Below, one piece after another: positions 1 through 33,356 of a stretch of DNA of 64,000 bases. The stretch is taken from NCBI GenBank assembly GCA_963794945.1, contig CAWCFT010000002.1, positions 1 through 64,000 on the forward strand, written 5' to 3'. The first letter of the stretch is position 1. Each line of letters opens with the position of its first letter. Source of the stretch: Endomicrobiales bacterium (GTDB taxonomy: Bacteria > Elusimicrobiota > Endomicrobiia > Endomicrobiales > CAWCFT01). A program made the position numbers and the translations under genes. Under the pieces are notes generated by a model that worked only from the letters and a program-made list of their open reading frames with translations, made no database searches and was not told where the DNA came from.

Positions 1-3000
1 TACCAACCAGATGACCTTGAACTTCAGCTGGGCGGGGGTAAATGATTCCCCGGCTGGCCTTGCTAACTATATCCTAGAGGTTTCTACCGACCCGGCTTTC
101 TAGCGTAATCAGCTACAGCTCTGGTACCCTGCTTAACTAAGGCTTCGCTTACTCTTAACCGGTCCTCCTACACCTGGCGCGTTAATACCATGGATAACGC
201 ATTGAACTACACAACATCTACAGCTCAATATTTCGTAACCGTTGATACTTCACCGCCGCCGGCGATCTCGACCCTCACGGCGCCTTTAAATAACCTCACT
301 ACTAACCAGATAACTCTCACTTTCAACTGGTCGGCGGTTACTTCACCCCGGCTGGCCTCACTAACTATATCCTTGAAGTCTCTACTGACCCGGCCTTCGG
401 CGTGATCAACTATTCTTCCTGGGTTGTGATTAACCAGGCTACGCTTACACTTAACCAGTCCTCTTACACATGGCGCGTAAACACCATGGACAACGCCCTT
501 AACTATACAACCTCTACAGCTGTATTTTTCGTCACTGTTGACTACGACTTCGCCGCCGGCTGTAACTACACTCAATACACCTCCTAATAACCTCACCACC
601 AGCCAGATGGCCTTGAACTTCAGCTGGACAGATGTTACAGGTACCGGCGGCGGCATACTGACTACATACTTCAGGTAGCCACTGACCGGCGTTCTCGGTT
701 ATTAACTATTCGTCCGCCACGCCACTTACTAACGCTACTTTAACTCTTATCCAGTCCTCTTACACCTGGCGCGTTAATACCATGGACAACGCCCTTAACT
801 ACACAACCTCTACGGTCAATTTGTCCGTAGTGGTCGACACCACTCCGCCGCCGGCTGTCTCGAGCCTTACGGCTCCTTTAAATAACCTCACCACTAACCA
901 GATGACTTTGAATTTCTCATGGGGAACTGTCACTGATAGCCCGGCTGGACTTAAGAACTATATCCTTGAAGTCTCTACTTCACCTAACTTCTCGGGCATC
1001 ATAATTTCTTCATGGGTAGTTAATAACTCGGCTACTCTTACTCTTAACCAGTCCTCCTACACCTGGCGCGTTAATGCAATCGACAACGCCCTCAACTACA
1101 CTACTTCTACCGCTGTCTATTTCGTCACCGTTGACACTACTCCGCCACCGGCTGTGGCTACTCTAAATGCACCACTTAATAACCTCACTACTAACCAAAT
1201 GACTTTGACGTTTGGCTGGTCACCGGTTACTGACGCCCCGGCTGGCCTTGCTAACTATATCCTTCAAGTCTCTACTGACCCCGCATTCGGCGTGATCAAC
1301 TATTCTTCTTGGGTTGTTACTAACTCCGCTACGCTTACCCTTAACCAGTCCTCCTACACCTGGCGCGTTAATACAATGGATAACGCTCTTAACTATACCA
1401 CCTCTACTGTCAAATACTTCGTCACCGTTGATACTACACCGCCACCGGCTGTTAACGCACTCAGCACGCCGCTTATTAACTTAACTACCAACCAGATGAC
1501 CTTGAACTTCAGCTGGGCGGGGGTAACTGATTCCCCGGCTGGCCTTGCTAACTATATCCTTGAAGTCTCCACTGCCCCGGACTTCTCGGGCGTCATCACT
1601 TCTTCATGGGTTGTAAATAACTCAGCTACATTAACCCTTAACCAGTCTTCTTACACCTGGCGTGTCAACACTATCGACAACGCACTCAACTACACCACCT
1701 CTACTGTCAAATATTTTGTAACTGTTGACACTACTCCGCCGCCGGCTGTGGCTACACTCAACACACCTTTAAATAACCTTACTACTAACCAAATGACTTT
1801 GACGTTTAATTGGACTGGCGTCTCTGACGCCCCGGCTGGCCTTGCTAACTATATACTTGAAGTTTCTACTGACCCGGCTTTCGGCGTGATCAACTATTCT
1901 TCATGGGTTGTAAATAACACGGCTACCCTTACACTCAACCAGTCTTCTTACACATGGCGCGTCAACACCATCGACAACGCCCTTAACTATACAACCTCTA
2001 CAGCTGTCTATTTCGTTACCGTTGCCACTACTTCGCCTTCGGCTGTTTCGAGCCTTACGGCTCCTCTTAATAACCTTACCACAAATCAAATGACCTTGAA
2101 CTTCAGCTGGGCAGCTGTTTCAGGTACCGGCGGCGGCCTTGCTGATTACATACTCCAGGTATCTACTGACCCGGCGTTCTCGGTTATTAACTATTCGTCC
2201 GCCACGCCACTTACTAACGCTACTTTAACTCTTATCCAGTCCTCTTACACCTGGCGCGTTAATACCATGGACAACGCCCTTAACTACACAACCTCTACGG
2301 TCAAGTGGTCCGTAGTGGTCGACACCACTCCGCCGCCGGCTGTCTCGAGCCTTACGGCTCCTTTAAATAACCTCACCACTAACCAGATGACTTTGAATTT
2401 CTCATGGGGAACTGTCACTGATAGCCCGGCTGGACTTAAGAACTATATCCTTGAAGTCTCTACTTCACCTAACTTCTCGGGCATCATAATTTCTTCATGG
2501 GTAGTTAATAACTCGGCTTCATTAACACTTAACCAGTCCTCCTACACCTGGCGCGTTAATGCAATCGACAACGCCCTCAACTACACTACTTCTACCGCTG
2601 TCTATTTCGTCACCGTTGACACTACTCCGCCACCGGCTGTTTCGAGCCTTACGGCTCCTTTGAACAACCTCACCACCAACCAAATGTCTTTGACTTTTAA
2701 TTGGACTGGCGTCTCTGACGCCCCTGCTGGCATTGCTAACTATATCCTTCAAGTCTCAACCGACCCGGCTTTCGGCGTGATCAACTATTCTTCATGGGTT
2801 GTTACTAACTCCGCTACCTTAACCCTTAACCAGTCCTCCTACACCTGGCGCGTTAACACTATCGATAACGCCTTGAACTATACTACTTCTACAGCAGTGT
2901 ATTTTGTAACTGTTGACACTACACCACCTACGGCCGTGAGTACTCTCAATACGCCTTTGAACAGCCTCACTACCAACCAGATGACCTTGAACTTCAGCTG

Positions 3001-4410
3001 GGCGGGGGTAACTGATTCCCCGGCTGGCCTTGCTAACTATATCCTTGAAGTCTCCACTGCCCCGGACTTCTCGGGCGTCATCACTTCTTCATGGGTTGTA
3101 AATAACTCAGCTACATTAACCCTTAACCAGTCTTCTTACACCTGGCGTGTCAACACTATCGACAACGCACTCAACTACACCACCTCTACTGTCAAATATT
3201 TTGTAACTGTTGACACTACTCCGCCGCCGGCTGTGGCTACACTCAACACACCTTTAAATAACCTTACTACTAACCAAATGACTTTGACGTTTAATTGGAC
3301 TGGCGTCTCTGACGCCCCGGCTGGCCTTGCTAACTATATACTTGAAGTTTCTACTGACCCGGCTTTCGGCGTGATCAACTATTCTTCATGGGTTGTAAAT
3401 AACACGGCTACCCTTACACTCAACCAGTCTTCTTACACATGGCGCGTCAACACCATCGACAACGCCCTTAACTATACAACCTCTACAGCTGTCTATTTCG
3501 TTACCGTTGCCACTACTTCGCCTTCGGCTGTTTCGAGCCTTACGGCTCCTCTTAATAACCTTACCACAAATCAAATGACCTTGAACTTCAGCTGGTCAGC
3601 TGTTTCGGGTACCGGCGGCGGCCTTGCTGATTACATACTCCAGATATCTACTGACCCCGCGTTCTCGGTCATTAACTACTCATCAGCCACACTCCTTACT
3701 AACGCTACTTTAACCATTAACCAATCATCTTACACCTGGCGCGTTAATACCATGGACAACGCCCTTAACTACACAACCTCTACGGTCAAGTGGTCCGTAG
3801 TGGTCGACACCACTCCGCCGCCGGCTATCGCGAGCCTTACGGCCCCTTTAAATAACCTCACTACTAACCAGATGACTTTGAATTTCTCATGGGGAACTGT
3901 ATCCGACAGTCCCGCAGGATTGAAAAACTATATCCTTGAAGTCTCTACTTCTCCTAACTTCTCGGGCATCATAATTTCTTCATGGGTAGTTAATAACTCG
4001 GCTTCATTAACACTTAACCAGTCCTCCTACACCTGGCGCGTTAATGCAATCGACAACGCCCTCAACTACACTACTTCTACCGCTGTCTATTTCGTCACCG
4101 TTGACACTACTCCGCCACCGGCTGTGGCTACTCTAAATGCACCACTTAATAACCTCACTACTAACCAAATGACTTTGACGTTTGGCTGGTCACCGGTTAC
4201 TGACCCCCCGGCTGGCCTTGCTAACTATATACTCGAAGTCTCAACCGACCCGGCTTTCGGTGTGATCAACTATTCTTCATGGGTTGTTAATAACACGGCT
4301 ACGCTTACCCTTAACCAGTCCTCTTACACTTGGCGCGTTAATACAATGGATAACGCCCTTAACTATACAACCTCTACTGTTAAGTATTTCGTTACTGTTG
4401 ACACTACACC
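1..4410 (+). repeat. Coding tandem array: ~15 x 297-bp (99-aa) modules organised as a 5-module 1485-bp higher-order repeat
   Basis: taccaaccagatgaccttgaacttcagctgggcgggggta starts at 1, 1486 and 2971. atggacaacgcccttaactacacaacctctacggtc starts at 782, 2267 and 3752. Identical antisense ORFs lie at 1901-2089 and 3386-3574 (offset 1485). Confidence 0.95.
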
Positions 4411-7400
4411 GCCTACAATTTCAAATCAAATTTTTCCCGCAAACGGAACTAAATCAAACCAGCTTTCCCAACTGTTTCAATGGCAAACTGCAACAGATGC
4501 TTTCATAGGTTTTCAAAGCTATACATTGCAGCTTGCGACATCCACAGATTTCGGACTTATAAGTTTTTCATCTACAACGCTTCTTACAAACGCCACACTT
4601 TCTAATTTAATCCAAAATATTTACTATTGGCGCATTGAGGCTACTGATAATGTTTTGAATAATTCTTATTCCACCACTACATTCAGTATTACTATTGACA
4701 CAACACCGCCTTCAGTGCCTGTGCTTTCGTCTCCACTTAACGGCACAGTTACAACACAAATGAATATCATTTTTATCACGAACCCTTCAGATGATTCCGG
4801 AGTAAGGGGAAATTCAGGGATTTCGACTTATAATTTTTATATATCCACAGATCCGGCTTTTAGCGTGTTCACGGCTTCACAGTCGCTTGCCGGTGTTTCA
4901 TTTGCCCAAACGCTACCGAGCGGCATATATTTCTGGCGTGTTAACGCAGTAGACGGTGCGGGAAACTACTCAGGTTTTTCATCAAACTATTCGGTAAATA
5001 TAGACACTTTCGGTCCGCTAATACATGATAACCAGCCAAATGTCACCCAGTGGCAAAATTTTGGGAACATGCTTTACAACGTGTCTTTTGAAGATGACCT
5101 CTCTCTATTAAACAATGTCGGATACAGTATCTATTCGTCCTCAACGGTATTTAACACTTCAACGCAGCTTGTTGGATGGACGGCCATTGCTCAAAATATA
5201 AACGCGGCAACCTACACTAATAATTTCGCGATCAACTTTAATGCTCTGCCTCAAAATACCACATGCTTTGTCGCAGTCAGCGCGACAGACAACCTGCTAT
5301 TGTCTACAACATACTATAACGCTTTCTTTGTCCTCAAAGACACCACAAACCCGACTATAAATGACACACAGACGGGAGACAACACATGGAGGTCAGTTAA
5401 TAATGGCGTTTACAGCGTAGGGTTCGGTGATTCCGGAGGTTCCGGGCTTCAGAGGTTCGATACAAGAGTTATGTCCGGCCCGCTGGGAAGCGGCACTGTG
5501 ATAGAAGACTGGACGACAAACTCAACGATTATAGCCAACACAACTTACTACAATACTCCATGGCCGCTTAACGCAAGCACGTGGGCAAACATGCCGGATG
5601 GCAAATCTTATGTGTCTGTCAGGGCCCTTGATAACTCATATTCAGCAGCGCTGGGTTATAACATCTCTTTCAGTACGGACGCATTCTATGTATTAAAAGA
5701 TGCAACACCGCCGATCGTCATAAACAACCAGGCAGGAGACACCACCTGGCGCAATTCTAATTACCAAACATACAATGTGTCATTTCAGGACGCAAGTTCA
5801 GGCTCAGGGATTTCACAGTTTGAGGTCAGGGCATCGACGATAGTTTACCCTCAAGGGGCTTCTTCGCCGCTTTGCCCCTGGACAGTAGTAGCTACAACAA
5901 GTACGTACCTTTACCAGCAACCCTGGATGCTCCCTCAGAGCGTCTGGAACAGCCTCATGCCGTATGTAAACAATTATATTTACGTAAGCGTCGCTGATGC
6001 CGCAGGAAATGTCACGACGCCTAATGCGTATGAATTCTTTGTTTTGCAAGACACTATACCTCCAACCATAACCGACAATATATCAGGAGGCGACAATACA
6101 TGGAGGCTTACAAACAACGGAGTTTATGACGTTGAATTTGCTGACCTCGGCGGCTCAAACCTGAACAAATTCCAGCTTCTCGCGTCCACCGTGGCCTATA
6201 ACACTCCACCTTACGTTTTTGGCTGGACCGATTCCGGAGTTAACATCTACAATCAGTCGTCTTTTACTTCCGGATTCCAGATGCCTAACACGCTCTTTAA
6301 CCTTCTATCTCAAGGCACGAACTATATCTCAGTTCAGGTTTCCGATATAGCAGGCTCGACAACAACGCTTAATTCAGCATTCAGGATATTGAAAGATACC
6401 ATTACGCCTTTCGGCATAGCGAACGCGCCTACATATTCAACCAGCTATACTTTCAATATACCCTGCACAATAAATTACGGTGGTAGCGGGTTAAAATACT
6501 TAAAACTTTATTATACTACACAAACACAGGCCCCGTATACTTACAACCTGTTCACTACAACGACGGCTGCGCCTATTTCGTTCACAGCCGCCAGCGAAGG
6601 TATCTATGGTTTCCAGCTTATAACCTACAATAATTGCAACCAAACCAGCCAACAGGACCCGCCATCGACAAATCTGGCGCCACAATCGACAACATACGTT
6701 GACATTACTCCACCCGCGATAAATAACCAGCAATCCGGAGACGATACCTGGCTCAACGCGCCTAAATCCGCCGGTTACTCCGTATACTTTAATGACACTG
6801 GCTCGGGGCTCAACACGGCCCAGTATATAATTCGTGCCGGGGCAAATTCCAACTCCGCTGTATTAAAGAACTGGACAAATATATTCCAGTCAACAAACAC
6901 GGCTTCGTACAATATGAACTGGCCTATTGATTTCAGCTCGTGCCAATCCAGCTTCAACTATGTTTCCGTAAGCGTATGGGACATGGCAGGCAACACAAAT
7001 ACGCCTTCGGGATATTCGTTCTATGTCAAGAAAGACACTGTCGCTCCTAATATATCTTACAACGAATTCGCCGCTGGAGGTGATAACACATGGCGCTCAG
7101 TAAGCCGCTCCGGCGGTTACAACGTGGATTTCTTCGACGGATTGTCCGGCCTTTCAAAAGCCGAATACAGAGTTTGCTCCAGCTCCTCAGATGTCACGGC
7201 CGTAATAGCGGACTGGCAAACTATAGCATCAGGTATATCTTCTTCTACCTATGCGACGAACTGGCAGCCAGCGTTCACGTCGCTCGTTGAGAGTACTACA
7301 AACTTTATTTGGGTGAGGCTTACTGATATAGCGGGTAACGCTTCAACAAACTATGCTTTTTACATATTCAAGGACACCACGCCCCCATTCTTTATCAATA

Positions 7401-25400: not shown

Positions 25401-25619
25401 TCTGATGACGGCTATATGTATGGGTTAGACACTGATGACGGGACACCCACTATCGCAGGTTTCCCTGTAGCTACAGGGGCTGAAATCAGATGCAGTCCAA
25501 TATATGATATAGGTTATTTAGATTCCCCGGACCATCATCCGTACAACGATTATTTAATATTCTGTTCAAACGATGGAAAAGTTTATTGCATCGATATACC
25601 GGATCCAAGCAGTCAATAG
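1..25619 (+). CDS. Giant extracellular/surface repeat protein (>=~8,500 aa, 5'-partial), reconstructed across 5 frameshifts: FN3/Ig-like repeats, propeller-like domains, 2 lamin-tail domains, C-terminal PQQ-type beta-propeller
   Basis: ORFs 782-9358, 9279-10595, 10640-12553, 12672-14105, 14263-16017 and 15885-25619 join by single-base changes at ~9325, ~10558, ~12549, ~13991 and ~15859. Each join restores a repeat or domain motif present elsewhere in the same protein, and the repeats continue to position 1. Confidence 0.85.
782..9358 (+). CDS. Fragment 1 of giant protein: 99-aa FN3/Ig-like tandem repeats, ~115-aa modules, two WTAxGxDG-type FN3 domains
   Basis: 2858-aa ORF with recurrent DTTPP...W...Y...YTWRVxxxDNALN motifs. 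The listed Met is internal to a repeat. Confidence 0.8.
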   Translation: MDNALNYTTSTVNLSVVVDTTPPPAVSSLTAPLNNLTTNQMTLNFSWGTVTDSPAGLKNYILEVSTSPNFSGIIISSWVVNNSATLTLNQSSYTWRVNAIDNALNYTTSTAVYFVTVDTTPPPAVATLNAPLNNLTTNQMTLTFGWSPVTDAPAGLANYILQVSTDPAFGVINYSSWVVTNSATLTLNQSSYTWRVNTMDNALNYTTSTVKYFVTVDTTPPPAVNALSTPLINLTTNQMTLNFSWAGVTDSPAGLANYILEVSTAPDFSGVITSSWVVNNSATLTLNQSSYTWRVNTIDNALNYTTSTVKYFVTVDTTPPPAVATLNTPLNNLTTNQMTLTFNWTGVSDAPAGLANYILEVSTDPAFGVINYSSWVVNNTATLTLNQSSYTWRVNTIDNALNYTTSTAVYFVTVATTSPSAVSSLTAPLNNLTTNQMTLNFSWAAVSGTGGGLADYILQVSTDPAFSVINYSSATPLTNATLTLIQSSYTWRVNTMDNALNYTTSTVKWSVVVDTTPPPAVSSLTAPLNNLTTNQMTLNFSWGTVTDSPAGLKNYILEVSTSPNFSGIIISSWVVNNSASLTLNQSSYTWRVNAIDNALNYTTSTAVYFVTVDTTPPPAVSSLTAPLNNLTTNQMSLTFNWTGVSDAPAGIANYILQVSTDPAFGVINYSSWVVTNSATLTLNQSSYTWRVNTIDNALNYTTSTAVYFVTVDTTPPTAVSTLNTPLNSLTTNQMTLNFSWAGVTDSPAGLANYILEVSTAPDFSGVITSSWVVNNSATLTLNQSSYTWRVNTIDNALNYTTSTVKYFVTVDTTPPPAVATLNTPLNNLTTNQMTLTFNWTGVSDAPAGLANYILEVSTDPAFGVINYSSWVVNNTATLTLNQSSYTWRVNTIDNALNYTTSTAVYFVTVATTSPSAVSSLTAPLNNLTTNQMTLNFSWSAVSGTGGGLADYILQISTDPAFSVINYSSATLLTNATLTINQSSYTWRVNTMDNALNYTTSTVKWSVVVDTTPPPAIASLTAPLNNLTTNQMTLNFSWGTVSDSPAGLKNYILEVSTSPNFSGIIISSWVVNNSASLTLNQSSYTWRVNAIDNALNYTTSTAVYFVTVDTTPPPAVATLNAPLNNLTTNQMTLTFGWSPVTDPPAGLANYILEVSTDPAFGVINYSSWVVNNTATLTLNQSSYTWRVNTMDNALNYTTSTVKYFVTVDTTPPTISNQIFPANGTKSNQLSQLFQWQTATDAFIGFQSYTLQLATSTDFGLISFSSTTLLTNATLSNLIQNIYYWRIEATDNVLNNSYSTTTFSITIDTTPPSVPVLSSPLNGTVTTQMNIIFITNPSDDSGVRGNSGISTYNFYISTDPAFSVFTASQSLAGVSFAQTLPSGIYFWRVNAVDGAGNYSGFSSNYSVNIDTFGPLIHDNQPNVTQWQNFGNMLYNVSFEDDLSLLNNVGYSIYSSSTVFNTSTQLVGWTAIAQNINAATYTNNFAINFNALPQNTTCFVAVSATDNLLLSTTYYNAFFVLKDTTNPTINDTQTGDNTWRSVNNGVYSVGFGDSGGSGLQRFDTRVMSGPLGSGTVIEDWTTNSTIIANTTYYNTPWPLNASTWANMPDGKSYVSVRALDNSYSAALGYNISFSTDAFYVLKDATPPIVINNQAGDTTWRNSNYQTYNVSFQDASSGSGISQFEVRASTIVYPQGASSPLCPWTVVATTSTYLYQQPWMLPQSVWNSLMPYVNNYIYVSVADAAGNVTTPNAYEFFVLQDTIPPTITDNISGGDNTWRLTNNGVYDVEFADLGGSNLNKFQLLASTVAYNTPPYVFGWTDSGVNIYNQSSFTSGFQMPNTLFNLLSQGTNYISVQVSDIAGSTTTLNSAFRILKDTITPFGIANAPTYSTSYTFNIPCTINYGGSGLKYLKLYYTTQTQAPYTYNLFTTTTAAPISFTAASEGIYGFQLITYNNCNQTSQQDPPSTNLAPQSTTYVDITPPAINNQQSGDDTWLNAPKSAGYSVYFNDTGSGLNTAQYIIRAGANSNSAVLKNWTNIFQSTNTASYNMNWPIDFSSCQSSFNYVSVSVWDMAGNTNTPSGYSFYVKKDTVAPNISYNEFAAGGDNTWRSVSRSGGYNVDFFDGLSGLSKAEYRVCSSSSDVTAVIADWQTIASGISSSTYATNWQPAFTSLVESTTNFIWVRLTDIAGNASTNYAFYIFKDTTPPFFINNKAAYDPLWYTGSRNYNVQLFDYASAGRFDKLNSLQYLANSQPALSGATLIPWTTAALLIDATSYTSGITISQFNLLNEGTNYISLLGSDLAGNTTTWADAFTIKKDITGPTIYNYQAGDGQWRGINNGLYSVYFQDLLSGVSNFQTVAYSGAGMTGQLLDNWRTVLSTQSAYFNQPWQLQNQTFNALQGGQNYISVKCFDAAGNSSVQNDVFYVLKDTVAPIVNNNQSVDNSWHNAGGTLYNVAFHDDGGSNLSYAQYQIYSAQDQSGTLIMPWTNIATAINTSDYTSPWSINFSSAVSGTNYVSVVAVDNAGNSTVSQDVFYVNVDTTPPAAITNLSITGTSQPEGQINMTWTAPGDDGNGGGAAVNYIVKYATFAITNAGGWAAASLYSSNWAPQNPGTTENRSITGLNILQTYSVAIITVDKAGNLSQLSNTVSPIAPGPDVTPPGVITNLTASPGTVAGQILLTWTAVGNDGYTGTATSYDLRWRNDIIINTSNWDNSTDYIQNPLWTPQSAGNTETELLNGFTIGTTYYFAMRVSDQSLNTSSTSNCGSSVPQVAQATNGEAVWGSGALPYSRAEYWQPPVWGALQSGATAAATIRWVKEASCPVLRNEKMVGVCNLVSGNVGNLYIQKWDGVNQVLGIWKPTWTD
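9279..10595 (+). CDS. Fragment 2 of giant protein: propeller-like domain (YDLAYEQQSGR, FDVAWE, DIAWE repeats)
   Basis: Paralogous to ~20300-21610 of the last fragment. Continuous with fragment 1 after removing one base at GTTCTG 9323-9328. Confidence 0.75.
   Translation: MWAIYTYKNGMASTKFWEYGSPLGQINSVASALDTRYRGYDLAYEQQSGRVLIAYYNGTTGHLSYSLWSSTANAYVQSGTLTMPGTTGLIRWVRLEPRPASNDIMLVAEDANDFISAVPWVNGSFDIAMSSSVGTSNISTRQSFDVAWETFNQRAMILYGSSNATYRTAFCMWSSSATQWTVGYSTGPNIGAASAWIKLAASPAASSNNIGLTSLDNSSHWNVGMWNGNIWSATGQPGEPTDATGMESSAVRGTDIAWEHDGSMCLANAVFASTSCFSFVAWNQTNGWYNINGTALNSLTNAQRDTYAFTAAGGYLESLTLYPDPSSNEIMFLCSDSQSGLDSRLWNGSGWTLGANLETSLSGTTAYESYAFAYNKQDNIPPTITDNMFGGDNTWRITNNGTYNVDFFDTGGSHLSLFQVMITSGPGKQAQSNRGGQL
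10640..12553 (+). CDS. Fragment 3 of giant protein: Ig/FN3-like modules
   Basis: Same YYWRVxAxDxAGN and NYVSV motifs; flanked by frameshifts at ~10558 and ~12549. Confidence 0.75.
   Translation: MPNSVFNNLEQGINYVSVEAQDMAFNATTIVDAFRIYKDTVPPTVPALILPANSAILTNINPLLGWSTSTDATSGVNNYTVQVSTDPINFTPLVYSNTLSVSQSTITPSINSDVYYWRVQAQDVAGNYSAYSSTYSIMIDTIPPVIVNNTAPDYVWHASSGQVYSVNFYDPLSNLNHPLSMLTTAYYKIFTSTGMSGIQITPWTPINTQIISSTSYATNWQLRSSDWNLLQNGTNYVSVRADDLAGNTSWWTDAFFVRKDTVPPSVPLLTSPTNGTYQSSSTVTFAWAQAIDINSGINSYDIYVSTSQLFGVYSSSANTTQNSQSIALASQGAFYWQVRAKDNAGNYSVWSSTSLVLIDTSPPAIPLLVSPSSNTITNATQFTFNWSDSYGGGAGLEYYVFNMSTSPYFTNLSASALPTTSYYTLPGSLTSGIYYWRVMAQDNAGWYSLWSSTYSVMVDTTAPAISNFEAGGDHTWRNAIEPGGYNVDFAKANLATLNNIEYSVYSQPAQGGTAVINWTTVTSTYSPYSPAFVPPLNQYFYTLNFGVNFNLLANGTNYISVMASDLAGNTSTWIDAFVILKDVTPPTLTNLVSGDYAWRNSSGTLYNVQLNDTGSGLSKFQIMISTSNTAAPLLGWF
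12672..14105 (+). CDS. Fragment 4 of giant protein: ~115-aa modules
   Basis: KDTxPP...NYVSV...DAF motifs; the tail goes out of frame after GTTCTG 13989-13994. Confidence 0.75.
   Translation: MAGNTSTYSNVFFILKDTIPPTGIDNETINRGWFASDPGPIWFVNFFDTPIPGRNPGSSMLNSVSYRIKTSTEGVILDWTPVATNLNTTYYVTPFAINFNAAIPGINHVDVMASNFAGNTTVFIDAFTVEKDSTVPLIQVMFATNTVTWINSSQLYSVNFYSQGPSNLSSIQYAVNDNPGFTGTNLIPWTDIATPPLNAPSYTTPWHVAFSQLENGGTNYVSVRAWNLTGSTATIIDAFRVLKDVTNPTISDPMYGGDTVWRSTPAAGGYNVNFFDGPPNGSLLNSFQLKVTSGPAQTGSVYQNWGSSETLNIGTTYYINSWQLSNNTWSNMQQGYNYVSALVYDYAGNSNELTDAFFVLKDTTPPQITDNQTGDNTWRSSNTGVYSVSFVDTGGSNLQRFEVSASTSASGYPLLNTWTTVQYNINSGSYNTPWQMPASVLAKPALGCYRLYIRPRVRQCGSGKFIGNCHAGILCSG
14263..16017 (+). CDS. Fragment 5 of giant protein: ~115-aa modules
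   Basis: Same module motifs; the frame is open back to ~13992 and shifts again at ~15859. Confidence 0.75.
   Translation: MTGTQVCGWTSMFSGLQLATTNVIWNPGISNWNLLAAGTNYIYLRAWDIAGSTNTLPDYAFTVRKDTFGPTIINDVNGYNTWLSQDPGQIWNTGFADTLSGLATAYYVINSGPALSGQNITPNIQLFAFAGAGISTTNVNFALPVSTFSLLSEGTSYVTVTAFDNLGNQTTFYDIFYIRKDTEAPSCQVIQSSYTAHNQQDLNSINVQFFDKGGSGLNSIQYRICPSTGNGTAYILDWTNIQAPPVGTTSYVQPWTIPFYPLPNNTTSYVSIQASDLAGNTTLYVDAFRIYKVAIGPEIVDNQIGDNTWRNTLAGVTYNVNFVSNSGLNLDKFGIMVTTTTDGSGVNYTTWSVIASNIGAQNYLSSWQIQPDSYFFNTWPQGKNYVHVQVSDLVPSSTTLYNAFYILKDTAPPFITNLQQNATFYASLAGISYNVNFADAGIGISTAQYMVSYSSTDPLDTQLMPWTTIFSSAPQPSFTNSWQVNFASLAQWATNYVSVRCFDGLGYETTSFAVFTILKDTTPPNAFSLLSPLTAPPLITRWYLSHGIQLLTTAHPELMITGCRFPHLPHLCRLYLTPTQQAHP
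15885..25619 (+). CDS. Fragment 6 (C-terminal) of giant protein: FN3/Ig modules, propeller-like domain, two lamin-tail domains, PQQ/BamB-like beta-propeller
   Basis: 3244-aa ORF. INEVCP...WVELYN and INEINY...IELYN are LTD-like (~22650-23530). WTYQTNGPIRTSPVV...VYFGSDDGYMYGL is PQQ-like (~24500-25600). Confidence 0.85.
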   Translation: MVSFSWNSTADNGPSGINDYRLQVSTSASFVPVILDTYTTGTSINSVNLVNSSTYYWRACAFDNAGNQSTFTGPWSFIIDTTPPTVPILVSPLNGMPTDQVSIAFSWSAQDIGPSGIKNYEITISTSITDFFACYDSITVQDPVSVTLALGANTYYWKVKATDNAMNSSVYSSTSVFFVDLAAPQISSNSVSGGDLTWRNSAKTGGYNVSFADPAGLLNAYYTIYTGPGMTGSMCKDWTPIFTNLNQTTYTQSWQVDFTSLQEGGTNFVSVKLADTLGHSATYYDIFFVLVDLTKPYFINNMPGGSDSTWRSSDPGAVYNVNFFDLPANGSKLSKLQTQCVTASGQTLWNWTDTITNMNTTSYYNNWDVFFSSCVEGQNYISLQIFDNASNSQQLPNAFFVLKDTTPPVISTGSWAQNQWYGIPPTVNIGFSDAASGSGVQSFSVITSTAPNIPASNWTLVQTTSTYSYTANWQIPQTVFNSMASGTTNYFWVKASDFALNVTTCPQAFIVMKDTSGVTIVNGEAAGQDSVWRSTSTVRSYNVNFVSLGQSPLVSVQYTAYTQPNRQGTMLFDWKGIPEFTGSGTSFNNWHIGAMDFASLVEYTTNYISVQCTSLSGSATTYNDVFFVKKDTTAPTAPSLTQPLNASATNQTTVPFGWLASSDLSSGTTLYYMAVSTAPDFSSVIFSSYTSSLLVRAVLPQSTYYWKAEAKDAANNWSSYSSPWTVIVDTTPPNTFALSSPLDGLTTNYISPQFSWSSTTDSGPSGLSYYRLDVSTSTTFVPLYLSSSTLSTSYTLNFQQSATYYWQVKAFDNAGNSVNSNSFRTIVIDTIAPAAPLLTSPINNFTTNYSNVTLTWAATGYDLTPINNYVVQLSTTANFSTVYSSASTSSTTYSATLSVSSTYFWQVTAYDTAGNFSTNNNIYNIIFDTIPPSQGSLLSPSSGTCTNTNLINFSWNTSTDYGPAGTAGYELRTSTDPAMSIYVSSITLLTQASLSYPQGLYYWKVRAYDRAFNYGLFSSTWSVIIDTTGPTQISSLTAPLNNLTTNQMTLNFSWGAISESPAGMKNYILQVSTDPAFSIVNYSSWVVLNSAAITLNQSSYTWRVNAMDNALNYTTSTAKYFVTVDTTPPQITFNQGNTTGWINSSTMTGIGFADSLVGVMISSYTAWTGPHNSGSNEINWTTIFSSSPALAVYSSPWAVNFNLLAPGTNYISLVSQNAAGNITGLTDAFLILKDTIPPASITNLSSYQGTWPTDNAGSVTLSWAAPSDDGLTDISNKAVSGYLVKYSTFNFTSTAAFLASNATFYQIWSPQQPSATETHDVTGLFEGATYFIGIIPIDKAGNYSNSISTTSNWALRVPPGQITTLNATTGSFPGEVNLTWMDPGDNYYVGTSSGYVVKYATFSITSNALFAAATTFAQTWTPQAASTYEQYVVNGLNPGTSYYFAMEAYDAASNYSVISNTVSAASGSSGATSGIITYGDATSGSPASPSYREWVAANSIYNPNPPAAPYRAQAAASTIRYVRLQSCNVLRDQKMMGVLTYNGNTAPNGDLYLQLWDGTANGGAGGWTSLGMINSSEGNMYSTYRGFDLAYEQNSGRVLVSYFNGTTGKLSYQVWSSTQGAFVGSGTLNCGTLTGSIYWVKLKSRPGSDQIMVAASDSNSALFGGIWNGPTNSWIVSSTKTFSTALSTGTKQCFDIAWENQSGRGMILWGTGTTTDFALWSSTANVWLSTGIAAVNIGVAENWASLAADPISNRIGFSSIDSSKHWYTDIWTGTAWNTASELSTTLETNNARCADIAWENNSGNCIAVCVNVSSTSMEWSESSAGGAWSALAKDSAYNWSAYIAYLELISDPNTNKIIATGIDISGSLRTRNWSSGWSGGSSLCDTVSGWTDGTLPSYMPAQLALDLQDDVPPIITVTGQTPLQGVWINNNNAEIFSAVTFTDSGGSHLAQLNSAVYTGPQLGGAALKSFTAGSPEITGMNTDSYSTPWSLSATTFNLLQRGQNNYVSLQVSDGAGNTTKSYDVFTVWKDTEPPQISSTTVNYGWQNAGVTYSNISIADQPGLSGLGAVQYCAYTSSANAGTQVLNWTNLPISTGSTSAYTGFTIAFNLLAANTNYISMRAWDVAGNTTTVTDFFTVLKDTQPPSTPSDFTATLGPYRGTVLLTWTAPGDDGAYGNNYTGNYIIKYATYSISSVALFNASTTFIQYTPAVPAGSPDSLTLSGLATGTTFYFALESTNKANNVSGVAYSGGIMPRASNIYINEVCPTASGSNNWVELYNNTSSSFSLTGCQLYYKQGTIASSVSETSVWTGGTGLSIASGTFVVIPGLTLNGSASYTVDLRDSLNRVIDQVQWPVMPSGYSYSRISDGNANFFEANPTPTMGYANSVSTGVVCINEINYASSLQTIELYNTSSTTQTLVNYIIRNSNGVPFRFTRTIPPYGFSGFDSSSVDNSGNSWTACFGASGLKPTADFIALVSSPSGQVIDRVTWNAGSNNNYLNYQTVGVPFDMPANGGISSPNTIGRYPDGANTFNNKNDFSVYSAPSFGGRNYNPTPLASNSVDYPATGTRLPAAFKIDTALGSNVSAGYNNAIWFVRTGGTADGKSPHIFRLQDIGFNLSSLTAQTTIQIGSALSDFDGNKLINGTIYSVIYNIDNGTSAAPQITVNSVYYDATISSAVVYPIMFQQVNNGAIAGVYRIDITNNAQSGGNNIQLYDVKARFTDGSGNPLNETQVQNLITNVCLVADNLVYGTLGTYQPAIDTGTLASVSGNFITVDSSGSMDIPVAMPQGSLSTIAPQQTQTYFLGVTMANNASNQSPNTFRVKMIPGTETIWRDAPSLVTQPTNAGAEVFVPSPYIIAPASAPAGSVYPLPVSQPGKTLAVFGQPYIDGAINNNYAASSDGNIYMVSDNGSSMWTFNAGGAVTTIYDSNLEEDAPYLYAGTNSGLLYKLQNNGSSVSQVWQYPLNLGSAVSSDITYYGGTANTPYLYVGTNDGHLYKIDNGGNLVSGWITSPGINGGMFGYPVIDPSTTLNDNGVWLGTSGGSFYRVNNGDNGSITASSTTAPSIHTSPFLTVGSSTHLIYYGDDSGTLRCRYASNLNSIPAGWTDVHVSSPIRSSPYVDSGYPGATNAIYFGCDNGKFYKVDVSSGGIYWTYQTNGPIRTSPVVGNNDDVYFGSDDGYMYGLDTDDGTPTIAGFPVATGAEIRCSPIYDIGYLDSPDHHPYNDYLIFCSNDGKVYCIDIPDPSSQ

Positions 25620-25652
25620 AAAAGTATAGCAGTCTAAAAAGGTGGAACAAAC

Positions 25653-28229
25653 ATGAATATAATATTTATTAAAACACATCTCATTAAAATCTTAGTTGCT
25701 CCGATGTTCATAGGTTACTGGCTGATGAGCACCGGCAGCTGTAGCTATGCAGCGTCGTGGCCGCTTTTCAGAGGAACACCCCAAAGAACTGGGGTGCTCA
25801 TCGAGCAGGCCAGGCCGCCGCTTGTACCTCAATGGAACTTCCAGATACAAACCGGTTTTGTTTCTTCGCCGGTTGTATACAAAGGGATACTGTACTGCGG
25901 AGGGAGGGACAACAACATCTGGGCTCTTAATGCATATACCGGCGCCCAAGTATGGCACTGCCCAACCGGCGGCTGGACAGACGCAACCCCTTGCGTAACA
26001 TCTTCCACTGTTTACGTGCCTTGCAAGGACCAGAATATTTACGCCATCAACAGGCTGACAGGCAACGTTATATGGCAAACTAACACAGGTACAACCGACT
26101 GCTCATCTCCGGTTCTTTACGGAGGGAACCTCTATTTCCTCTCCGGTTACCCGGGCACGAAACTCTACTGTATCAACGCGTCTAACGGCAATATGGTAAA
26201 GGCCATCAATATCAGCAATTTCGGGTTCTCATCTCCCTCAGTAAGCGTCAGTGACAACCTTATGTTCTTTGGAACGAATGACGGATTGTTCCAATGCGTC
26301 GACCTTCAGAGTGGCACCCTAGCTTCCGGATGGGCCAAACCGACACAGGGTAATATTTCTTTCTGCTCGTTCGCGGTTGATGATAACTATGTATACGCGG
26401 TTTCCGGTGGCGATGAACAAAGGCTTTATTGTTTCACGCATGCGGGTTCACAGGTTTGGAGGTCAGCCCAATTCAACGGCAACACGGCCGCGGTATCGTC
26501 AGCCACGCTGGGCCAGGGAAAGATTTTTGTCGCGTCGTCGTTCGTGAATGGAACAGTGACCACCCTCAACCTTCTCTCGTTCGACAGCCTGGGAACCGGC
26601 GCCCCGGACCCGACCAACGTCGCTCCTCAATGGTCAACTACTATTGGACAGCCGCACCCTTCAGGCATTATCTCGTCGCCATCCTGCGCCGACGGCACTA
26701 TATACATCGGTTCTGGTGACGGCAGGCTGTACTGCGTGGATTCATCCAGCGGTTCATATATCGAGCCTGGAACAGGCAACCTTACAGCTACTCCAACAGG
26801 CTATTACCTCAGCTTTAACGGCAGTGTGTCAACGGGCATAGTCAGCTCGCCATGCGTTTCCAACGGGTGGGTATATGTCAACACGTATGACGGTAACATG
26901 TGGGGTCTTCAGGCCCAGAACGCACTTTACATCTCAAACCCAGATAATAGCGACCTTGTAGTCAACGTCGCTACGATATGCGGCTCAACACAAGGTTTGG
27001 GAACAAGCGGATTCGAGCTTGACTATGCGCCTGGATCATCACCAACAACATGGACCCACTGCTAACCTCCACCAATGCAGCCGCAGGCCAGGCACTCGCC
27101 GTGTGGAACACGAGATCGCTCAAGGATGGCACTTACAGTGTCAGGATGACCGCCCTTGGCAACTCTTCTCAAAGGGCAATAAACAGTTTTTCAATAAACA
27201 ACTCTCCTCCGCCTCCGACAAATCTTGTCGCTGTCGACACACCTTTCGACGGCGGCGGAAGCCTTACACTTAGCTGGCAGGTCTCGGGTGACGACGGAGC
27301 CGGGAACAACGATGTCGCAGGCTATAACATATATAAGAGCACTTTTAGCGGCGGTTTTGTCTATCTGGCGCACGTGCTTAAAGGGGTGACAACTTATATA
27401 GACAACGCCTGCCCGGTGTATACAACATTTTACTACACGGTGACAGCGCTGGACGCCGTTTCTGAATCTGATTTCTCCAACGTGGCATGGGCGTTCTCGC
27501 TGGCTGACGGTGTCCTTATAACGCCCGCGAACGGCGGTGTTGTGACAATTACCGTTAACGGCCTTACAACCGAAGCGGACTTTCCGCCGGGAGCCGTAGC
27601 TTCTAATGTCTGGGCCGGCATACTGATACCTGCTAGCTATTCGAACACTGGCGTGCCGGCATCAGCAAAATCCACGAGTCAAGTAAGGATATTCGGTGTG
27701 AACCCAAGCACTACAAAGTTCCTTAAACCAGTTATAATTAAGATGCCGTACTATCCTTCAGAACATAGTCAATATGAACAAAACAAACCTGAGAATTTAT
27801 TGGTGGGACGCAAGCAAGAATGTTTGGAGCGTCCTCAACACGTCCGATCCAAACAGCGAGAACGGGCGCGTGTGGGCAAGCCTTAACTATTTTTCGCCAG
27901 CTTCGATATACCGGATAATGCAGTATGTTCCTGGCCATGAACCTTTAATTTTGGGAGACAGGGTGTATACTTATCCGAACCCGGCATTGGGCAGTACGCT
28001 TACTTTCAAGTATTACCTTGGAGATATCGCCGATGTTTATATCGATGTGTACAGCGTCTCGGGCCAGCTTATAGCGCACCTGGAAAAACCAAACAACCCG
28101 GCCGGAATAGTTTCAGAGCTGCCGTGGGATATTTCTAAAAAGGCCAGCGGTGTGTATATTTTCAGGATCGAAGCAAGGACAAGCTCTGAAACCAGATCGT
28201 TAAAAAAGAAGCTGGCGATAGTGCATTAA
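25653..28229 (+). CDS. Secreted PQQ-type beta-propeller + FN3 protein with C-terminal T9SS type A sorting / FlgD-Ig-like domain (~858 aa after joining 3 ORFs)
   Basis: Signal peptide, then WPLFRGTPQRTG and SSPVV...GRDNNIWALNAYTG repeats; C-terminus YTYPNP...LPWD...ASGVYIFRIEA...KKLAIVH. Frameshifts at ~27055 (-1) and 27759-27764 (+1). Confidence 0.8.
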
Positions 28230-28262
28230 TTCAGCTATAAGTGGTAGGTAGGTGGAGAATAT

Positions 28263-29390
28263 ATGAGAAGTTTGAAAGTATTAAATTATCTCTATCAGGA
28301 GTTTAAATTTAAACGCAGTTTACTTGCGGCTATCCTGATCTTTATAATCTATTTACTCTCGGCTTATATTCTGCCGCTTAAGGCTGACGTCCAAATAGGC
28401 CCTAATGCCGGAACGACTTCTGCTACTTTCCTTAAATACGGCATAGGCTCTAGAGCGGTAGCCATGGGAAGCGCTTTCGGAGGCCTTGCTGATGATATGA
28501 CAGCAATGTATTGGAACCCGGCCGGCCTTGCGCAGCTTCAAACCAGCGAGATCAGCATTACCCACGACGAATCTTTTGAAGGCCTCAGGCACGATTTCGC
28601 TGGCTACGCCTTCCCTTATAAAGGAGGAGTGCTGGCTGCCGCCGTATACGGCCTCTATACCCCAACAGACAATGAGCTCCGTTCAGGCCTCAACGAGAAC
28701 GACCCGTATTACCCGATCTCGCCAGTTGAAGGACTCTTCCAGGCCTACGACGTCGCGGCGCATGTGTCTTACGCCCGCTGGTTCGGCAATAATCTTTCGT
28801 TCGGCGCTTCGCTTAAATACATACAACAAACCATATATGTTTATAACGCGTGGAGCGTCGCGGCCGACATCGGTTCCCTGTACAAATTCAAGACCCTGCC
28901 GCTAAGCTTTGGACTATCCATTCAAAACATTGGACAACCCATAAAATTCATATCACAGGCCTACGACCTCCCGCTAAACATCAGGTTCGGTTCTGCTTAT
29001 AAATTCAATAAAAAGCTCACGGCGACGCTTGACTTGAACCAGCCGAATGACGACTACCTGTCACTTTCTGCCGGCGCAGAATTCTGGCCGACAGATCTTT
29101 TTGCGATCAGGGCGGGGTACAGCTACAGGATGAACGGCAATGAGCTGGGGGACACCTACGGTTTGTCGGCAGGAACCGGCTTTAATTTTAAATTGAGGAA
29201 TATGGTATTGAAAGTCGATTATGCTTTTGTCCCATACAGCGTGCTTGGAAACTCACAAAGAGTGACGATCAGCATGGCGTTCGGAAACCCTAAACCTGTT
29301 ACACTTCCTCAAACCGCGGCACCTATTGCTCAGCGGAAACAAGCTGTAACGATACAGGCTTCAGCTCATTCGCCGATCGTGTCTGCCTAA
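28263..29390 (+). CDS. PorV/PorQ-family (UPF0164/FadL-like) outer-membrane beta-barrel
   Basis: ATFLKYGIGSRAVAMGSAF...AMYWNPAGLA N-terminal motif; GLSIQNIG, LRFG-type strands, AIRAGY, DYAFVPYSVLG. Confidence 0.85.
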   Translation: MRSLKVLNYLYQEFKFKRSLLAAILIFIIYLLSAYILPLKADVQIGPNAGTTSATFLKYGIGSRAVAMGSAFGGLADDMTAMYWNPAGLAQLQTSEISITHDESFEGLRHDFAGYAFPYKGGVLAAAVYGLYTPTDNELRSGLNENDPYYPISPVEGLFQAYDVAAHVSYARWFGNNLSFGASLKYIQQTIYVYNAWSVAADIGSLYKFKTLPLSFGLSIQNIGQPIKFISQAYDLPLNIRFGSAYKFNKKLTATLDLNQPNDDYLSLSAGAEFWPTDLFAIRAGYSYRMNGNELGDTYGLSAGTGFNFKLRNMVLKVDYAFVPYSVLGNSQRVTISMAFGNPKPVTLPQTAAPIAQRKQAVTIQASAHSPIVSA

Positions 29391-29436
29391 AGATTCAGCC
29401 CCTATAATACCTTCACTTTCTACAACCGCTTTCAAA

Positions 29437-29820
29437 ATGTTCGATGTTGATATCGACCTCAAGCGCAGGATGGCTGGCAGGCAGCAGTCGATGTATGTTA
29501 TGACAGGGAAAACCGACGGAAGCGATATAGTCTATCTTGAAGGAACGATCAAAACCGAAGGCACCGACCTATCTTTGGCGATTGGGGAAAAGTCCGGGGA
29601 AGGCAATGTTTACAAACATTTCCTGTTCGTGGAAAATAGCGGCTCGCCGGTTTACAAGATCGTATGCAAGGTACGGGTTCCGAAAATCATCAAGAACCCT
29701 GTCTTGAAGACTGAAGAAGGGGTAGAGATCAAGGCCCAGAAGACGCTTGAAGACGATAATTACGCGTATTATAAATTCTTCACCAACGCATTCAAGCCGT
29801 TCAGAGTAGAATCAAAATAA
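29437..29820 (+). CDS. Hypothetical protein, probably the frameshifted C-terminal extension of the PorV-family gene (joined ~518 aa)
   Basis: No SD before 29437. The frame is open upstream through a Pro/Ala/Ser linker, and a +1 shift near GTCTG 29381-29385 joins it to the PorV frame. Confidence 0.5.
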   Translation: MFDVDIDLKRRMAGRQQSMYVMTGKTDGSDIVYLEGTIKTEGTDLSLAIGEKSGEGNVYKHFLFVENSGSPVYKIVCKVRVPKIIKNPVLKTEEGVEIKAQKTLEDDNYAYYKFFTNAFKPFRVESK

Positions 29821-30656
29821 ATGGACAGGAACATACTGGCAAGGAATATCCTTATACTCAACCAGTTAGAAGAGATCGCTTCAGCGTTCTCTAAAAATAA
29901 TATCTCCGCCGTGCTCCTCAAAGGCGCGGCGCTTATTGTTTCTTTCCCGGCGTACTCCGGTATCAGGAATATGGAAGATATTGATATGCTTGTAAGGCCA
30001 AATGATATCACAGCCGCAAAAGATACGTTATCATCTATGGGTTACACCCCGGCACCCGAAGATCCGTGCGGTATGATAAACCCGACAAAACCTGCCCCTG
30101 TGGACCTTTCGGACAACATGTGGTACCTCGACCGCAAAGAAAACGAAACACTTTTCAATGAAAGCCTTCAGTTTATTTTCGATGGATTCTCAGGGCGCCT
30201 GTCGCGATTGAAAGCCGAAGATTTTTATATCCATGTGCTCGCGCATGGCGCCATCCATCACGCGGAAGCAGACCCGAAATGGAAAGAAGACCTTTTGCTT
30301 ATACGCGAAAACTGGGGGAAATCGATTAACTGGAGGGAAGTGGAAAACAAACTGAAGCTTTATGGTTTTCAAAAAGCCGCGGCGATTTATTTATCTCCGG
30401 CTTCAGGGAAAGGTTCTTTTTACGGCAGGCGCTGCGCTCAAGGGACAATCCGCTCAAAGGCCATATTTCCAGATTTATTTATCTGCCGTTTAATAAAAAA
30501 TTAACATATATTATTGAGGTATTTTTCCCTTCTAGCGAGTTTCTGTTAAACCGCTATGAACTGAAGAATTCGTTTCAGATTTTCTTATATAGGATATTCA
30601 GGCCGTTCCTGCTGCTGAAAAATCTTGCCTCATGCGCCAGGCACTTGCTTTCCTAG
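29821..30656 (+). CDS. Uncharacterised nucleotidyltransferase (NTP_transf_5-like), ~278 aa after one -1 frameshift near 30426
   Basis: LLKGAAL...RNMEDIDMLVRP motif and HxxxH. An alternative frame gives a plausible C-terminus (...FFPSSEFLLNRY...LYRIFRPF...LLS*) ending at 30656. Confidence 0.8.
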
Positions 30657-30661
30657 ATAGC

Positions 30662-31342: not shown

Positions 31343-31448
31343 TTTTTACTCCTTCCAACTGTATTAAAGAACTGCACGTTAATTATAACTAATTATGCCT
31401 GTAAAATAAAGGCTGACAATGTTTAATGACATTCATTGTACGGATGTG

Positions 31449-31477
31449 TTGCAAATGATACAATAAATAGCTAGAAT
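31449..31477 (+). promoter_or_regulatory. Putative sigma70 promoter for the 56-aa gene
   Basis: TTGCAA (31449-31454), 17 bp, TAGAAT (31472-31477). Confidence 0.55.
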
Positions 31478-31529
31478 ATTTTTCAGCTATTTTTCTAAGC
31501 ATACAACTAATATCAAAAGGAGTTGAATC

Positions 31530-31700: not shown

Positions 31701-31726
31701 GTTGCGTGCGAACATACACAAATTAA

Positions 31727-32491
31727 TCAATAATTCCCTAGGTCGCCTTTTTCTCTTGTTTTTTTGTAAGCGATCGTGAACGCAAGCGCGCCGGCTGAAA
31801 ACAAAACAAGCGCCCATCCCGCCTGAACTGCGAATCCCGACAAGAGTGGTGTTTTTCCATAAAGAAGAATATCCCGCCACATATTCAGCGCATATGTAGT
31901 GGGAAGAGCGCCTGAAATATTTTTCAAGATATCAGGAAATACTGCGACGGGGAAATATATACCGCTTAACAAATCAACCGCCGAGCCAAGGATCCAGTTC
32001 ACCGGATCACCGCGTTTAAAATACAAAATAAAACTACCCGACAAAAGGCCTATGCCGCCCATCGCTATCGAGTTTAAAATGAATAACGGGATGAACAGAA
32101 AAAGATTTAAGTTGAGATCAGCCTTTAACAAAAACTTTCCTAAAAATAGAAGGCAAGCGGTCTCTATGGCCAGAAGAGCGAATTTAAACGCTGTAGAAGA
32201 AAGAAGCACAAACAATGGCCTGTTGGGGGACAGGAAAACATGTTCGATCGTGCCCCAGTACTGCTCCTGCCGGATATTCTCGGCAAAAACATTAAGCCAG
32301 AACTGAAAAAATCCGCTGAACACGAGCCCGATAAAAACGAACTTGAAATAGCCGTGATTACCAAGGAAACGGCTTATGAAAAAGAATATAATAAGCTGCG
32401 TAACAAGGCCGATGAGCTTAAGAACTAGATGGAAACGGTAAGTCCTTTCGATAGCGGTATCACGAAAAATGAAGGCCCATAATATATTCAT
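31727..32491 (-). CDS. ABC-2 type exporter permease
   Basis: Multi-pass. RQEQYWGTIEHVFLSP, LLSGIYFPVAVFP and LPTTYALN motifs. Probable start MNILW at 32491 overlaps the ATPase stop (ATGA). Confidence 0.88.
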   Translation of the reverse strand: MNILWAFIFRDTAIERTYRFHLVLKLIGLVTQLIIFFFISRFLGNHGYFKFVFIGLVFSGFFQFWLNVFAENIRQEQYWGTIEHVFLSPNRPLFVLLSSTAFKFALLAIETACLLFLGKFLLKADLNLNLFLFIPLFILNSIAMGGIGLLSGSFILYFKRGDPVNWILGSAVDLLSGIYFPVAVFPDILKNISGALPTTYALNMWRDILLYGKTPLLSGFAVQAGWALVLFSAGALAFTIAYKKTREKGDLGNY

Positions 32492-33144: not shown

Positions 33145-33327
33145 TTTAATGGTCCAACATGAATCCAAACCCAAACATTTTAAACCGAATTCACGATTTA
33201 ACAGCTTATATGTCAAAACACTATAATTTTATATATGATTGTTGATATTTTGCAAGATTGAGCTCAAAATACGTATTTCAGCACAATAATATATGTAAAA
33301 ACCTTGGTGTATTGTATCTAATTTTGC

Positions 33328-33356
33328 TTGACAAATCAATTTTATTCTTATATACT
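33328..33356 (+). promoter_or_regulatory. Near-consensus sigma70 promoter upstream of the glycan cluster
   Basis: TTGACA (33328-33333), 17 bp, TATACT (33351-33356), in an AT-rich divergent intergenic region. Confidence 0.75.

Follow-up and report, generated by a model that had tools for sequence, protein, structure and literature searches.

How can a giant protein that carries no sorting signal at its C terminus be kept on the surface of a bacterial cell? The question is raised by a locus of an Endomicrobiales bacterium (assembly GCA_963794945.1; 2.9 Mb in 19 contigs, 86% complete) at the start of contig C2 (CAWCFT010000002.1), of which we analyzed the first 64,000 nucleotides (nt), here called the window; window position 1 is the first base of the contig. 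Four genes stand there in the same orientation, encoding a giant repeat protein, a propeller-bearing partner with a C-terminal domain (CTD) like the type A sorting tags of T9SS, the type IX secretion system, a barrel of the PorV/PorQ family, and a nucleotidyltransferase (Table). Our answer, to which we give a probability of about 0.6, is that the giant is held on the cell surface through the CTD-bearing partner, which would serve as its adaptor.

A profile search for the partner returned 80 loci, of which the 68 strong matches were analyzed; the other 12 matched the C-terminal part only, and both search patterns for partner loci were derived from the CTD. Every phylum-level record title among the 68 names Elusimicrobiota, and the closest relatives are titled Endomicrobiales or Elusimicrobia, placing the host outside Bacteroidota as had been thought possible from the letters alone. 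The giant's terminal propeller is encoded directly upstream of the partner in 53 of the 54 loci with context, and a barrel follows the partner in all 63 with context on that side. The original prediction had extended this synteny, and the export unit itself, to the nucleotidyltransferase. In only 18 of the 62 loci with context there does that gene come after the barrel (an ABC permease is found in 44 of the 62), and it fits instead with an upstream peptide cassette described below. The module comprises more than four genes. A single copy of the giant propeller was found in each of 46 among 301 genomes of the phylum, and none in the 70 and 92 genomes of two small-genome families. These relatives are kin and not independent, and all such figures should be read as plain counts and not as statistics.

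At its C terminus the giant has a PQQ-type propeller that passes the cutoff of its family and, as the original prediction held, lacks a C-terminal sorting signal: none of 55 giant C termini matched a CTD at E < 0.1, none of 54 had a hydrophobic segment, and none of 36 library proteins carrying the giant's last two domains had a CTD. The untagged giant is an exception, because further giants encoded in these genomes, frames of 17,343 aa (G005:C6:90200) and 17,970 aa (G012:C31:31009), have a CTD-like match at their own end. Three findings had been named in advance as telling against the predicted module, namely, lost synteny, a C-terminal domain outside the CTD families, and an export or anchor signal of the giant's own. 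Only the last was found, as an N-terminal Sec-type signal peptide (judged by eye) that lies outside the window and is expected. A split-gene explanation, with giant and partner as halves of one protein, was rejected; no giant-partner fusion was seen among 53 loci or 36 library proteins.

In the partner, the type A-like CTD passes both curated cutoffs, TIGR04183 and PF18962, which bears out its earlier assignment. A signal-peptide-like hydrophobic segment was present in 47 of 48 testable partners (of 54 in all; no dedicated predictor was used). Modeling of the giant's terminal propeller with the partner's propeller (each about 380 aa), a check that the original prediction had called for, gave a complex score of 0.74, against 0.00 for the best of three controls, with contact agreement of at least 82% and a partner pLDDT of at least 76. 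The mark for this score is reached by 116 of 157 solved pairs and by 2 of 215 mismatched pairs, and it is a rough one here, the alignments being self-made. The two propellers are predicted by this model to bind each other, and some near-invariant residues fall within the interface (N177, G179, and G201 of the partner and N230 of the giant).

What the partner would hold is a protein of fixed end and variable length. Its C-terminal part keeps the order of an FN3-like pair, a Trp-rich propeller, three repeats, two lamin-tail (LTD) domains, a conserved region of about 300 aa, and the PQQ propeller, while its length is set by the number of copies in two repeat arrays; open frames of the giant reach 10,482 aa among genomes of the phylum. 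The Trp-rich propeller, a first copy of which lies within the stalk near 9300-10400, had neither a Pfam match nor a PDB sequence match, profile search included. Its model resembles the PHL/PLL lectins (TM score by target, 0.66 to 0.70; 13 to 15% identity), and on this structural likeness it is likely to bind glycans. A PDB profile search with the 300-aa region returned no significant match. At the other end, the 620-aa region after the signal peptide folds as tandem beta-sandwiches in the model of an orthologue (G005; pLDDT, 84). For this region, Foldseek gave tandem jelly-roll proteins at TM scores by query of no more than 0.20, a loose jelly-roll/carbohydrate-binding likeness with no whole-protein relative, and the ESM Atlas gave no usable match for the giant's N-terminal region.

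The barrel that follows the partner belongs to the PorV family, as stated before (NF033709, 175 bits; cutoff, 90). It reaches neither the PorV nor the PorQ equivalog cutoff, the best specific model being PorQ (99 bits; cutoff, 220). In this genome we counted 33 PorV-family matches in 25 loci and 22 CTD matches, 20 of them at or over the cutoff, and 15 of the 25 PorV-like loci lie within 700 nt behind a CTD gene, where 0.07 would be expected. The barrel had been proposed as one dedicated to the giant; a PorV-like barrel does stand behind the partner, but a CTD-adjacent barrel is not special to the giant locus, as the 15 such arrangements in this genome show. CTD matches also occur in frames of 119 to 146 aa (C15:42526, C3:45185, C8:44025, C8:26368, and C15:16526), each adjoining a PorV-like gene. 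By appearance these consist of a signal peptide and a CTD and nothing more; they may be plugs or minimal cargo, and some may be frameshift fragments.

A search for T9SS genes, also suggested by the original prediction, yielded a SprA-like pore and no full-length PorU or GldK to GldN. The SprA-like gene is present in 275 of the 301 genomes. Its profile matches only SprA in the PDB (6h3i and 6h3j), in two stretches at E 6e-17; the profile was needed for this, a single-sequence PDB search with the protein giving 0 matches. In this genome, a transposase-like open reading frame (ORF) precedes it, and lptF/lptG-like genes are nearby (labels by eye). For the PorL/PorM motor and the PorK/PorN ring, GldK, GldM, and GldN had no match in five genomes and GldL had none in two, but the GldM and GldL controls also had no real match in three genomes of the Fibrobacterota-Chlorobiota-Bacteroidota (FCB) type. 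For PorU, only model positions 836 to 1094 of 1095 matched, over the cutoff in none of five genomes, with no positive control and with this genome 86% complete. By analogy, the export background would work like T9SS anchoring and may or may not be a T9SS proper.

The reading frames of this particular copy need comment. Between the giant stop at 25619 and the partner start at 25653, and again between the partner stop at 28229 and the barrel start at 28263, lie gaps of 33 nt, and the transferase starts at 29821 with no gap after the barrel gene ends at 29820. The order and tight spacing of four co-oriented genes thus stand as predicted. The single frame of more than 8,500 aa does not: the giant region 1-25619 (25,619 nt, or about 8,540 codons) is spread over six ORF pieces with changes of frame. 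The partner is in three pieces and the barrel and transferase genes are in two each, so that five breaks in the giant are joined by four across the next three genes. An intact orthologue of 8,360 aa (G008) is collinear with all six giant pieces at 36 to 56% identity, the breaks in the other three genes are bridged by intact orthologues as well, and all module pieces have 36 to 57% identity to intact orthologues. Because these orthologues align collinearly across the breaks, we read giant, partner, barrel, and transferase as one gene each. Three of four core genes checked (groEL, secA, and lepA) also continue in another frame, and some ten marker genes of this genome have frames far shorter than their usual lengths. 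Since groEL, secA, and lepA are broken likewise, the module frameshifts are most likely assembly errors (indels). Stop-codon recoding was rejected as the cause of the broken giant, because its pieces do not share one frame and each of the three stop codons occurs at their ends.

The giant's missing 5' half appears to lie on another contig. Its N terminus and the upstream genes of relatives map to C14:49920-66676, where the giant runs for 13 kb and ends at an IS110 transposase, with unrelated genes beyond. The noisy start of C2 is 90% identical over 285 nt to the end of this stretch, versus 79% for two other repeat copies tested. Joined, C14 and C2 would probably give a gene of about 38 kb encoding about 12,800 aa; the split may be due to a true rearrangement or equally to a mis-join. 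The IS110-family transposase (C14:66690-68218) is single copy at the DNA level, and past it the gene content changes and the GC content later rises up to 0.55, so that a mis-join or contamination is possible. Within the 297-nt repeat array at window positions 782-4400, longer duplications about 1,485 nt apart are 92 to 94% identical, which points to recent expansion and is probably why the contig breaks off here.

From these elements we envisage the following course. Both giant and partner would be exported by Sec, the giant's terminal propeller would dock on that of the partner, and the partner, guided by its CTD, would cross the outer membrane through the SprA-like pore. Because no PorU sortase was found, we infer that the CTD is not cut and stays bound to the adjacent PorV-like barrel, which would anchor it lastingly, in the way that PorQ anchors PorZ. 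A stalk of variable length bearing lectin-like domains would be formed by the repeats. That the giant also passes the SprA-like pore, as the passenger of the partner, is the least certain step, and we regard it as rather doubtful. The scheme as a whole would be a type IX-like system of Elusimicrobiota that has neither motor nor sortase. An untagged, lectin-bearing adhesin of about 1 MDa would travel through a SprA-like pore as the passenger of an adaptor with a CTD and would stay docked on a PorV-like barrel of its own. Its control would lie with a radical-SAM phosphopeptide encoded alongside, the leader peptidase of which can form part of the adhesin N terminus. In this complete form the scheme is tentative, and we would not expect every part of it to hold.

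Several observations weigh against surface attachment and export of this kind. The controls for the complex model were unrelated proteins and not PQQ propellers, many of which have been solved, and the pass may partly reflect PQQ likeness. Interface columns are not extra conserved (partner, 0.55 versus 0.51, P = 0.21; giant, 0.43 versus 0.52, P = 0.94). The SprA-like protein matches TIGR04189 in two segments of 59 and 57 bits (cutoff, 200) within a frame of about 1,770 aa, versus 2,403 for SprA, and a complex of two propellers may not fit through its pore. Motor searches, which had no working positive control, identified no energy source for export, and secretins over the cutoff in five of five genomes could provide an alternative route. 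As for the copy at hand, its giant is cut on C14 by the IS110 gene and may therefore be split, and the break rate of the module, about 0.3 per kb, looks higher than the 2 breaks in about 26 kb of sampled syntenic housekeeping genes, for which reason some real decay of the module is possible.

The secretins would suit an arrangement in which the giant is exported otherwise, by a secretin-based type II or pilus-type machine, and the partner and barrel either capture it outside or form an independent pair of CTD cargo and carrier that is merely co-expressed. Genes with pilin-like N termini precede the cassette in several loci (by eye), the shortness of the SprA-like protein points the same way, and giants of Omnitrophota adjoin genes like those of type II secretion systems (T2SS), according to the available part of their description (10.1101/2023.11.21.568195). 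The 64-kb window, however, contains no secretin or pilin gene, and the gene order kept in 53 of 54 loci together with the predicted contact argues against co-expression as the only link, while capture outside would agree with both. We consider this arrangement unlikely. Very improbable, in our estimation, is a partner that acts as a periplasmic, BamB-like folding or assembly factor, the giant-partner complex being a scaffold of the periplasm or envelope and not an outer adhesin. The best matches of the partner propeller are BamB-type models (TIGR03300, 81 bits, below the cutoff of 285), and the surface location of both proteins is a prediction; yet the partner has a CTD over its curated cutoff and a carrier barrel next to it, a lipobox-like motif occurs in only 2 of 48 partners, and a stalk that bears lectin-like domains and measures from 3,000 to over 12,000 aa would fit the outside better.

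Independently of these alternatives, the locus in this genome might be a decaying pseudogene cluster, with real frameshifts and a real IS110 break, that displays nothing while the system works in relatives. The frame breaks described above lend it weight (five breaks in the giant and four in the next three genes, at a rate that looks raised), as do the unrelated genes past the transposase and a C2-C14 match of only 90%. Against it stand the equally broken groEL, secA, and lepA and the identity that all module pieces retain to intact orthologues, and we judge such decay distinctly unlikely. Attachment of the giant through its CTD-bearing adaptor is the reading that we prefer.

The peptide cassette lies upstream of the giant on C14 and consists of an HD-domain gene, an HprK-like kinase, a PqqD/RRE protein, a radical SAM/SPASM enzyme, a 48-aa ORF resembling the precursor of a ribosomally synthesized and posttranslationally modified peptide (RiPP), and an S26-like peptidase. 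The precursor is found in 43 of the 46 giant-bearing genomes; it shares a contig with the giant in 19 genomes and lies upstream of the giant's end in 18. In 20 cassette loci, picked because their contigs are long, the cassette leads into the giant in 15, adjoins partner, barrel, or transferase genes in 4, and does neither in 1. The precursor has no NCBIfam or Pfam match, and three core Cys and a terminal Ser are present in all 30 precursors examined (of 52 matches). The RRE passes its cutoff (PF05402, 63 bits), whereas the peptidase falls short (TIGR02228, 42 bits; cutoff, 52); in five of five cases its Ser, His, and Asp are invariant. Matches of the kinase are weak (ScmC, E 3.5e-7; HprK-related B, 4.4e-5), and a PDB profile search with it gave no significant match. 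The radical SAM maturase, represented by the G012 orthologue, was below the cutoff of all 25 listed family models (best, 142 bits), and by this measure it was not assigned to the named radical SAM RiPP families (SynChlorMet, GeoRSP, ACGX, Wgk, and ranthi-/sactipeptides), SynChlorMet being compared by model scores only. The peptidase is present in 28 of 30 cassette loci and is in frame with the giant N terminus in 7 of the 30, this genome included. At the position of the catalytic Ser of the S26-like motif, 10 of the 28 cassette peptidases have Cys (by eye), which suggests a cysteine-nucleophile variant.

Because the gene clusters of linear polyphosphorylated peptides (LPP) and pseudomycoidin tailoring match in parts, we place the nucleotidyltransferase in this cassette; by analogy, it is likely a tailoring enzyme and not an export part. 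The cassette would cross-link, phosphorylate, trim, and export the 48-aa peptide. Our guess is that the peptide is a signal controlling the building of adhesin and exopolysaccharide.

Table. Location of the features discussed; positions without a contig prefix are those of the window
Feature	Position	Strand	Basis or remark
Giant, 3' part, about 8,540 codons, six frameshifted pieces	1..25619	+	Collinear with intact 8,360-aa orthologue
Giant ORF pieces	782-9358, 9279-10595, 10640-12553, 12672-14105, 14263-16017, 15885-25619	+	Plus noisy first 780 nt
Stalk: arrays of beta-rich Ig/FN3-like repeats of two types (units of about 99 and about 125 aa), with FN3-like pairs	1..20300	+	Self-built repeat profiles; weak Big_13, fn3, and Ig_Rha78A_N matches
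Trp-rich seven-bladed propeller	20301..21608	+	Structure model, pLDDT 86; closest fold, Photorhabdus PHL/PLL lectins
Two lamin-tail (LTD) domains	22647..23400 (end approximate)	+	PF00932, 64 bits, 2 stretches; repeat profiles
Conserved region of about 300 aa, fold unassigned, just before terminal propeller	23532..24434	+	In 52/54 giants
C-terminal PQQ-type eight-bladed propeller, predicted docking domain	24477..25619	+	PF13360, 37 bits (cutoff, 27.6)
Partner (intact length about 850 aa; frameshifted twice in this copy), with signal peptide, PQQ-type propeller, linker domains of beta-sandwich type, and type A-like CTD	25653..28229	+	Domain searches; orthologues
Partner PQQ-type propeller	25749-26921	+	Domain search
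Partner type A-like CTD	27972-28229	+	TIGR04183, 38 bits (cutoff, 23); PF18962, 30.6 (cutoff, 27)
PorV/PorQ-family barrel gene; one frameshift, past which about 150 aa extend the C terminus	28263..29820	+	NF033709, 175 bits (cutoff, 90); orthologues of 505-530 aa
Barrel domain	28413-29282	+	NF033709
NTP_transf_5 nucleotidyltransferase, one frameshift	29821..30656	+	PF14907, 93.9 bits (cutoff, 31.2)
ABC-2 permease and ATPase, convergent with module; candidate peptide exporter	31727..33216	-	Domain search
Likely 5' half of giant, with signal peptide	C14:53671-66676		Mapping of relatives' N terminus
Unannotated 48-aa RiPP-like precursor: YxxP leader, three Cys, terminal Ser	C14:53490-53636		In 51/301 phylum genomes
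SprA-like gene, frameshift near end	C5:39155-44419	-	Frame of about 1,770 aa

Around the module, a 226-aa ORF at 30662-31342 on the minus strand, between the transferase and the ABC permease, has no Pfam or NCBIfam match and is not at the same place in the listed relatives. The rest of the window (33367-64000) is a large polysaccharide locus with Wza, Wzc, a Wzy-like protein, a flippase, numerous glycosyl- and methyltransferases, and one protein each of the LVIVD-repeat and FemAB-like types; Wza is near the module in relatives as well. A promoter and terminator scan of 24500-33500 was uninformative, with 13 terminator-like sites against 9.7 expected.

In the literature searched, which excluded most subscription journals, we found no published description of a giant that lacks a tag and has a conserved, predicted adaptor with a propeller, and none of PorV or type IX secretion in Elusimicrobiota. 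If our reading of the genes is right, the locus makes it possible to test how cargo without a tag can use an adaptor, in a phylum where pore, carriers, and tags are present and no motor was detected. It also ties an uncharacterized, predicted radical-SAM phosphopeptide to a giant surface protein, so that adaptor route and peptide cassette are joined in one locus across the phylum. The published view, as given in the available parts of two papers (PMC11285876 and PMC12618676), is that the T9SS is confined to Bacteroidota or the FCB group, has a proton-driven motor, and chooses cargo by the cargo's own CTD.

The cassette resembles the LPP clusters of Bacillota, for which the available text describes an archaeal-type signal peptidase, a stand-alone RRE, a kinase resembling HprK, an NTP transferase, a transporter, and polysaccharide loci nearby (PMC13381572). 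The LPP leader is given there as YxxP...FET, with the consensus YxxPxVLxHQxIxFETxxS, a phosphorylated Ser3, and a linear product; the precursor here has YxxP and E[TS] in common with it, at a spacing two residues shorter and with Leu, not Ser, at position 3. Unlike LPP clusters, the cassette has a radical SAM/SPASM enzyme, a three-Cys core ending in Ser (30 of 30), an ABC-2 and not an MsbA-type transporter, and a peptidase that in 7 of 30 loci forms a fusion with the giant. Tailoring of the paeninodin and pseudomycoidin kind is likewise close. In pseudomycoidin, PsmK is reported to phosphorylate the C-terminal Ser and PsmN to be needed for hexose addition (PMC6993621, available part), and the nucleotidyltransferase here would be analogous to PsmN and LppN.

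The giant itself recalls those of Omnitrophota, which are described, in the part of the source available, as very large, with attachment-type domains and N-terminal peptidase domains near signal peptides; the same source notes proteins of at least 10,000 aa in Elusimicrobiota (10.1101/2023.11.21.568195). Omnitrophota giants have transmembrane and SecA domains and T2SS-like neighbors, whereas the giant C terminus here has no membrane segment. The pore shares with the SprA/Sov translocon the two-stretch profile match described above and differs from it in length and in its score below the TIGR04189 cutoff.

SprB-SprF of Flavobacterium johnsoniae, a type B CTD protein with a PorP/SprF shuttle, likewise has a cargo gene followed by its own barrel gene, and in Bacteroidota all type A cargo is said to use one PorV while type B cargo has adjacent private shuttles (PMC12618676, available part). 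In contrast to SprB-SprF, the tags here are type A-like, the barrels are of the PorV/PorQ family, and the giant itself is untagged. PorZ is reportedly a propeller protein that keeps its CTD. In the T9SS attachment complex of Porphyromonas gingivalis, with its PorZ-PorQ and PorU-PorV pairs, a PorV-family barrel keeps a type A CTD protein at the outer membrane, PorQ anchoring PorZ, as far as the available text goes (PMC12365241), and partner and barrel at the giant locus would be such a pair. Our phylum lies outside the FCB group, beyond which T9SS genes were said in 2024 to be absent (PMC11285876, available part), and differs from P. gingivalis in that no full-length PorU, GldK, GldL, GldM, or GldN was found, in searches whose motor controls failed. 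Unlike in PorZ-PorQ and PorU-PorV, the anchored partner here is predicted to hold a second protein, the giant that has no CTD of its own.

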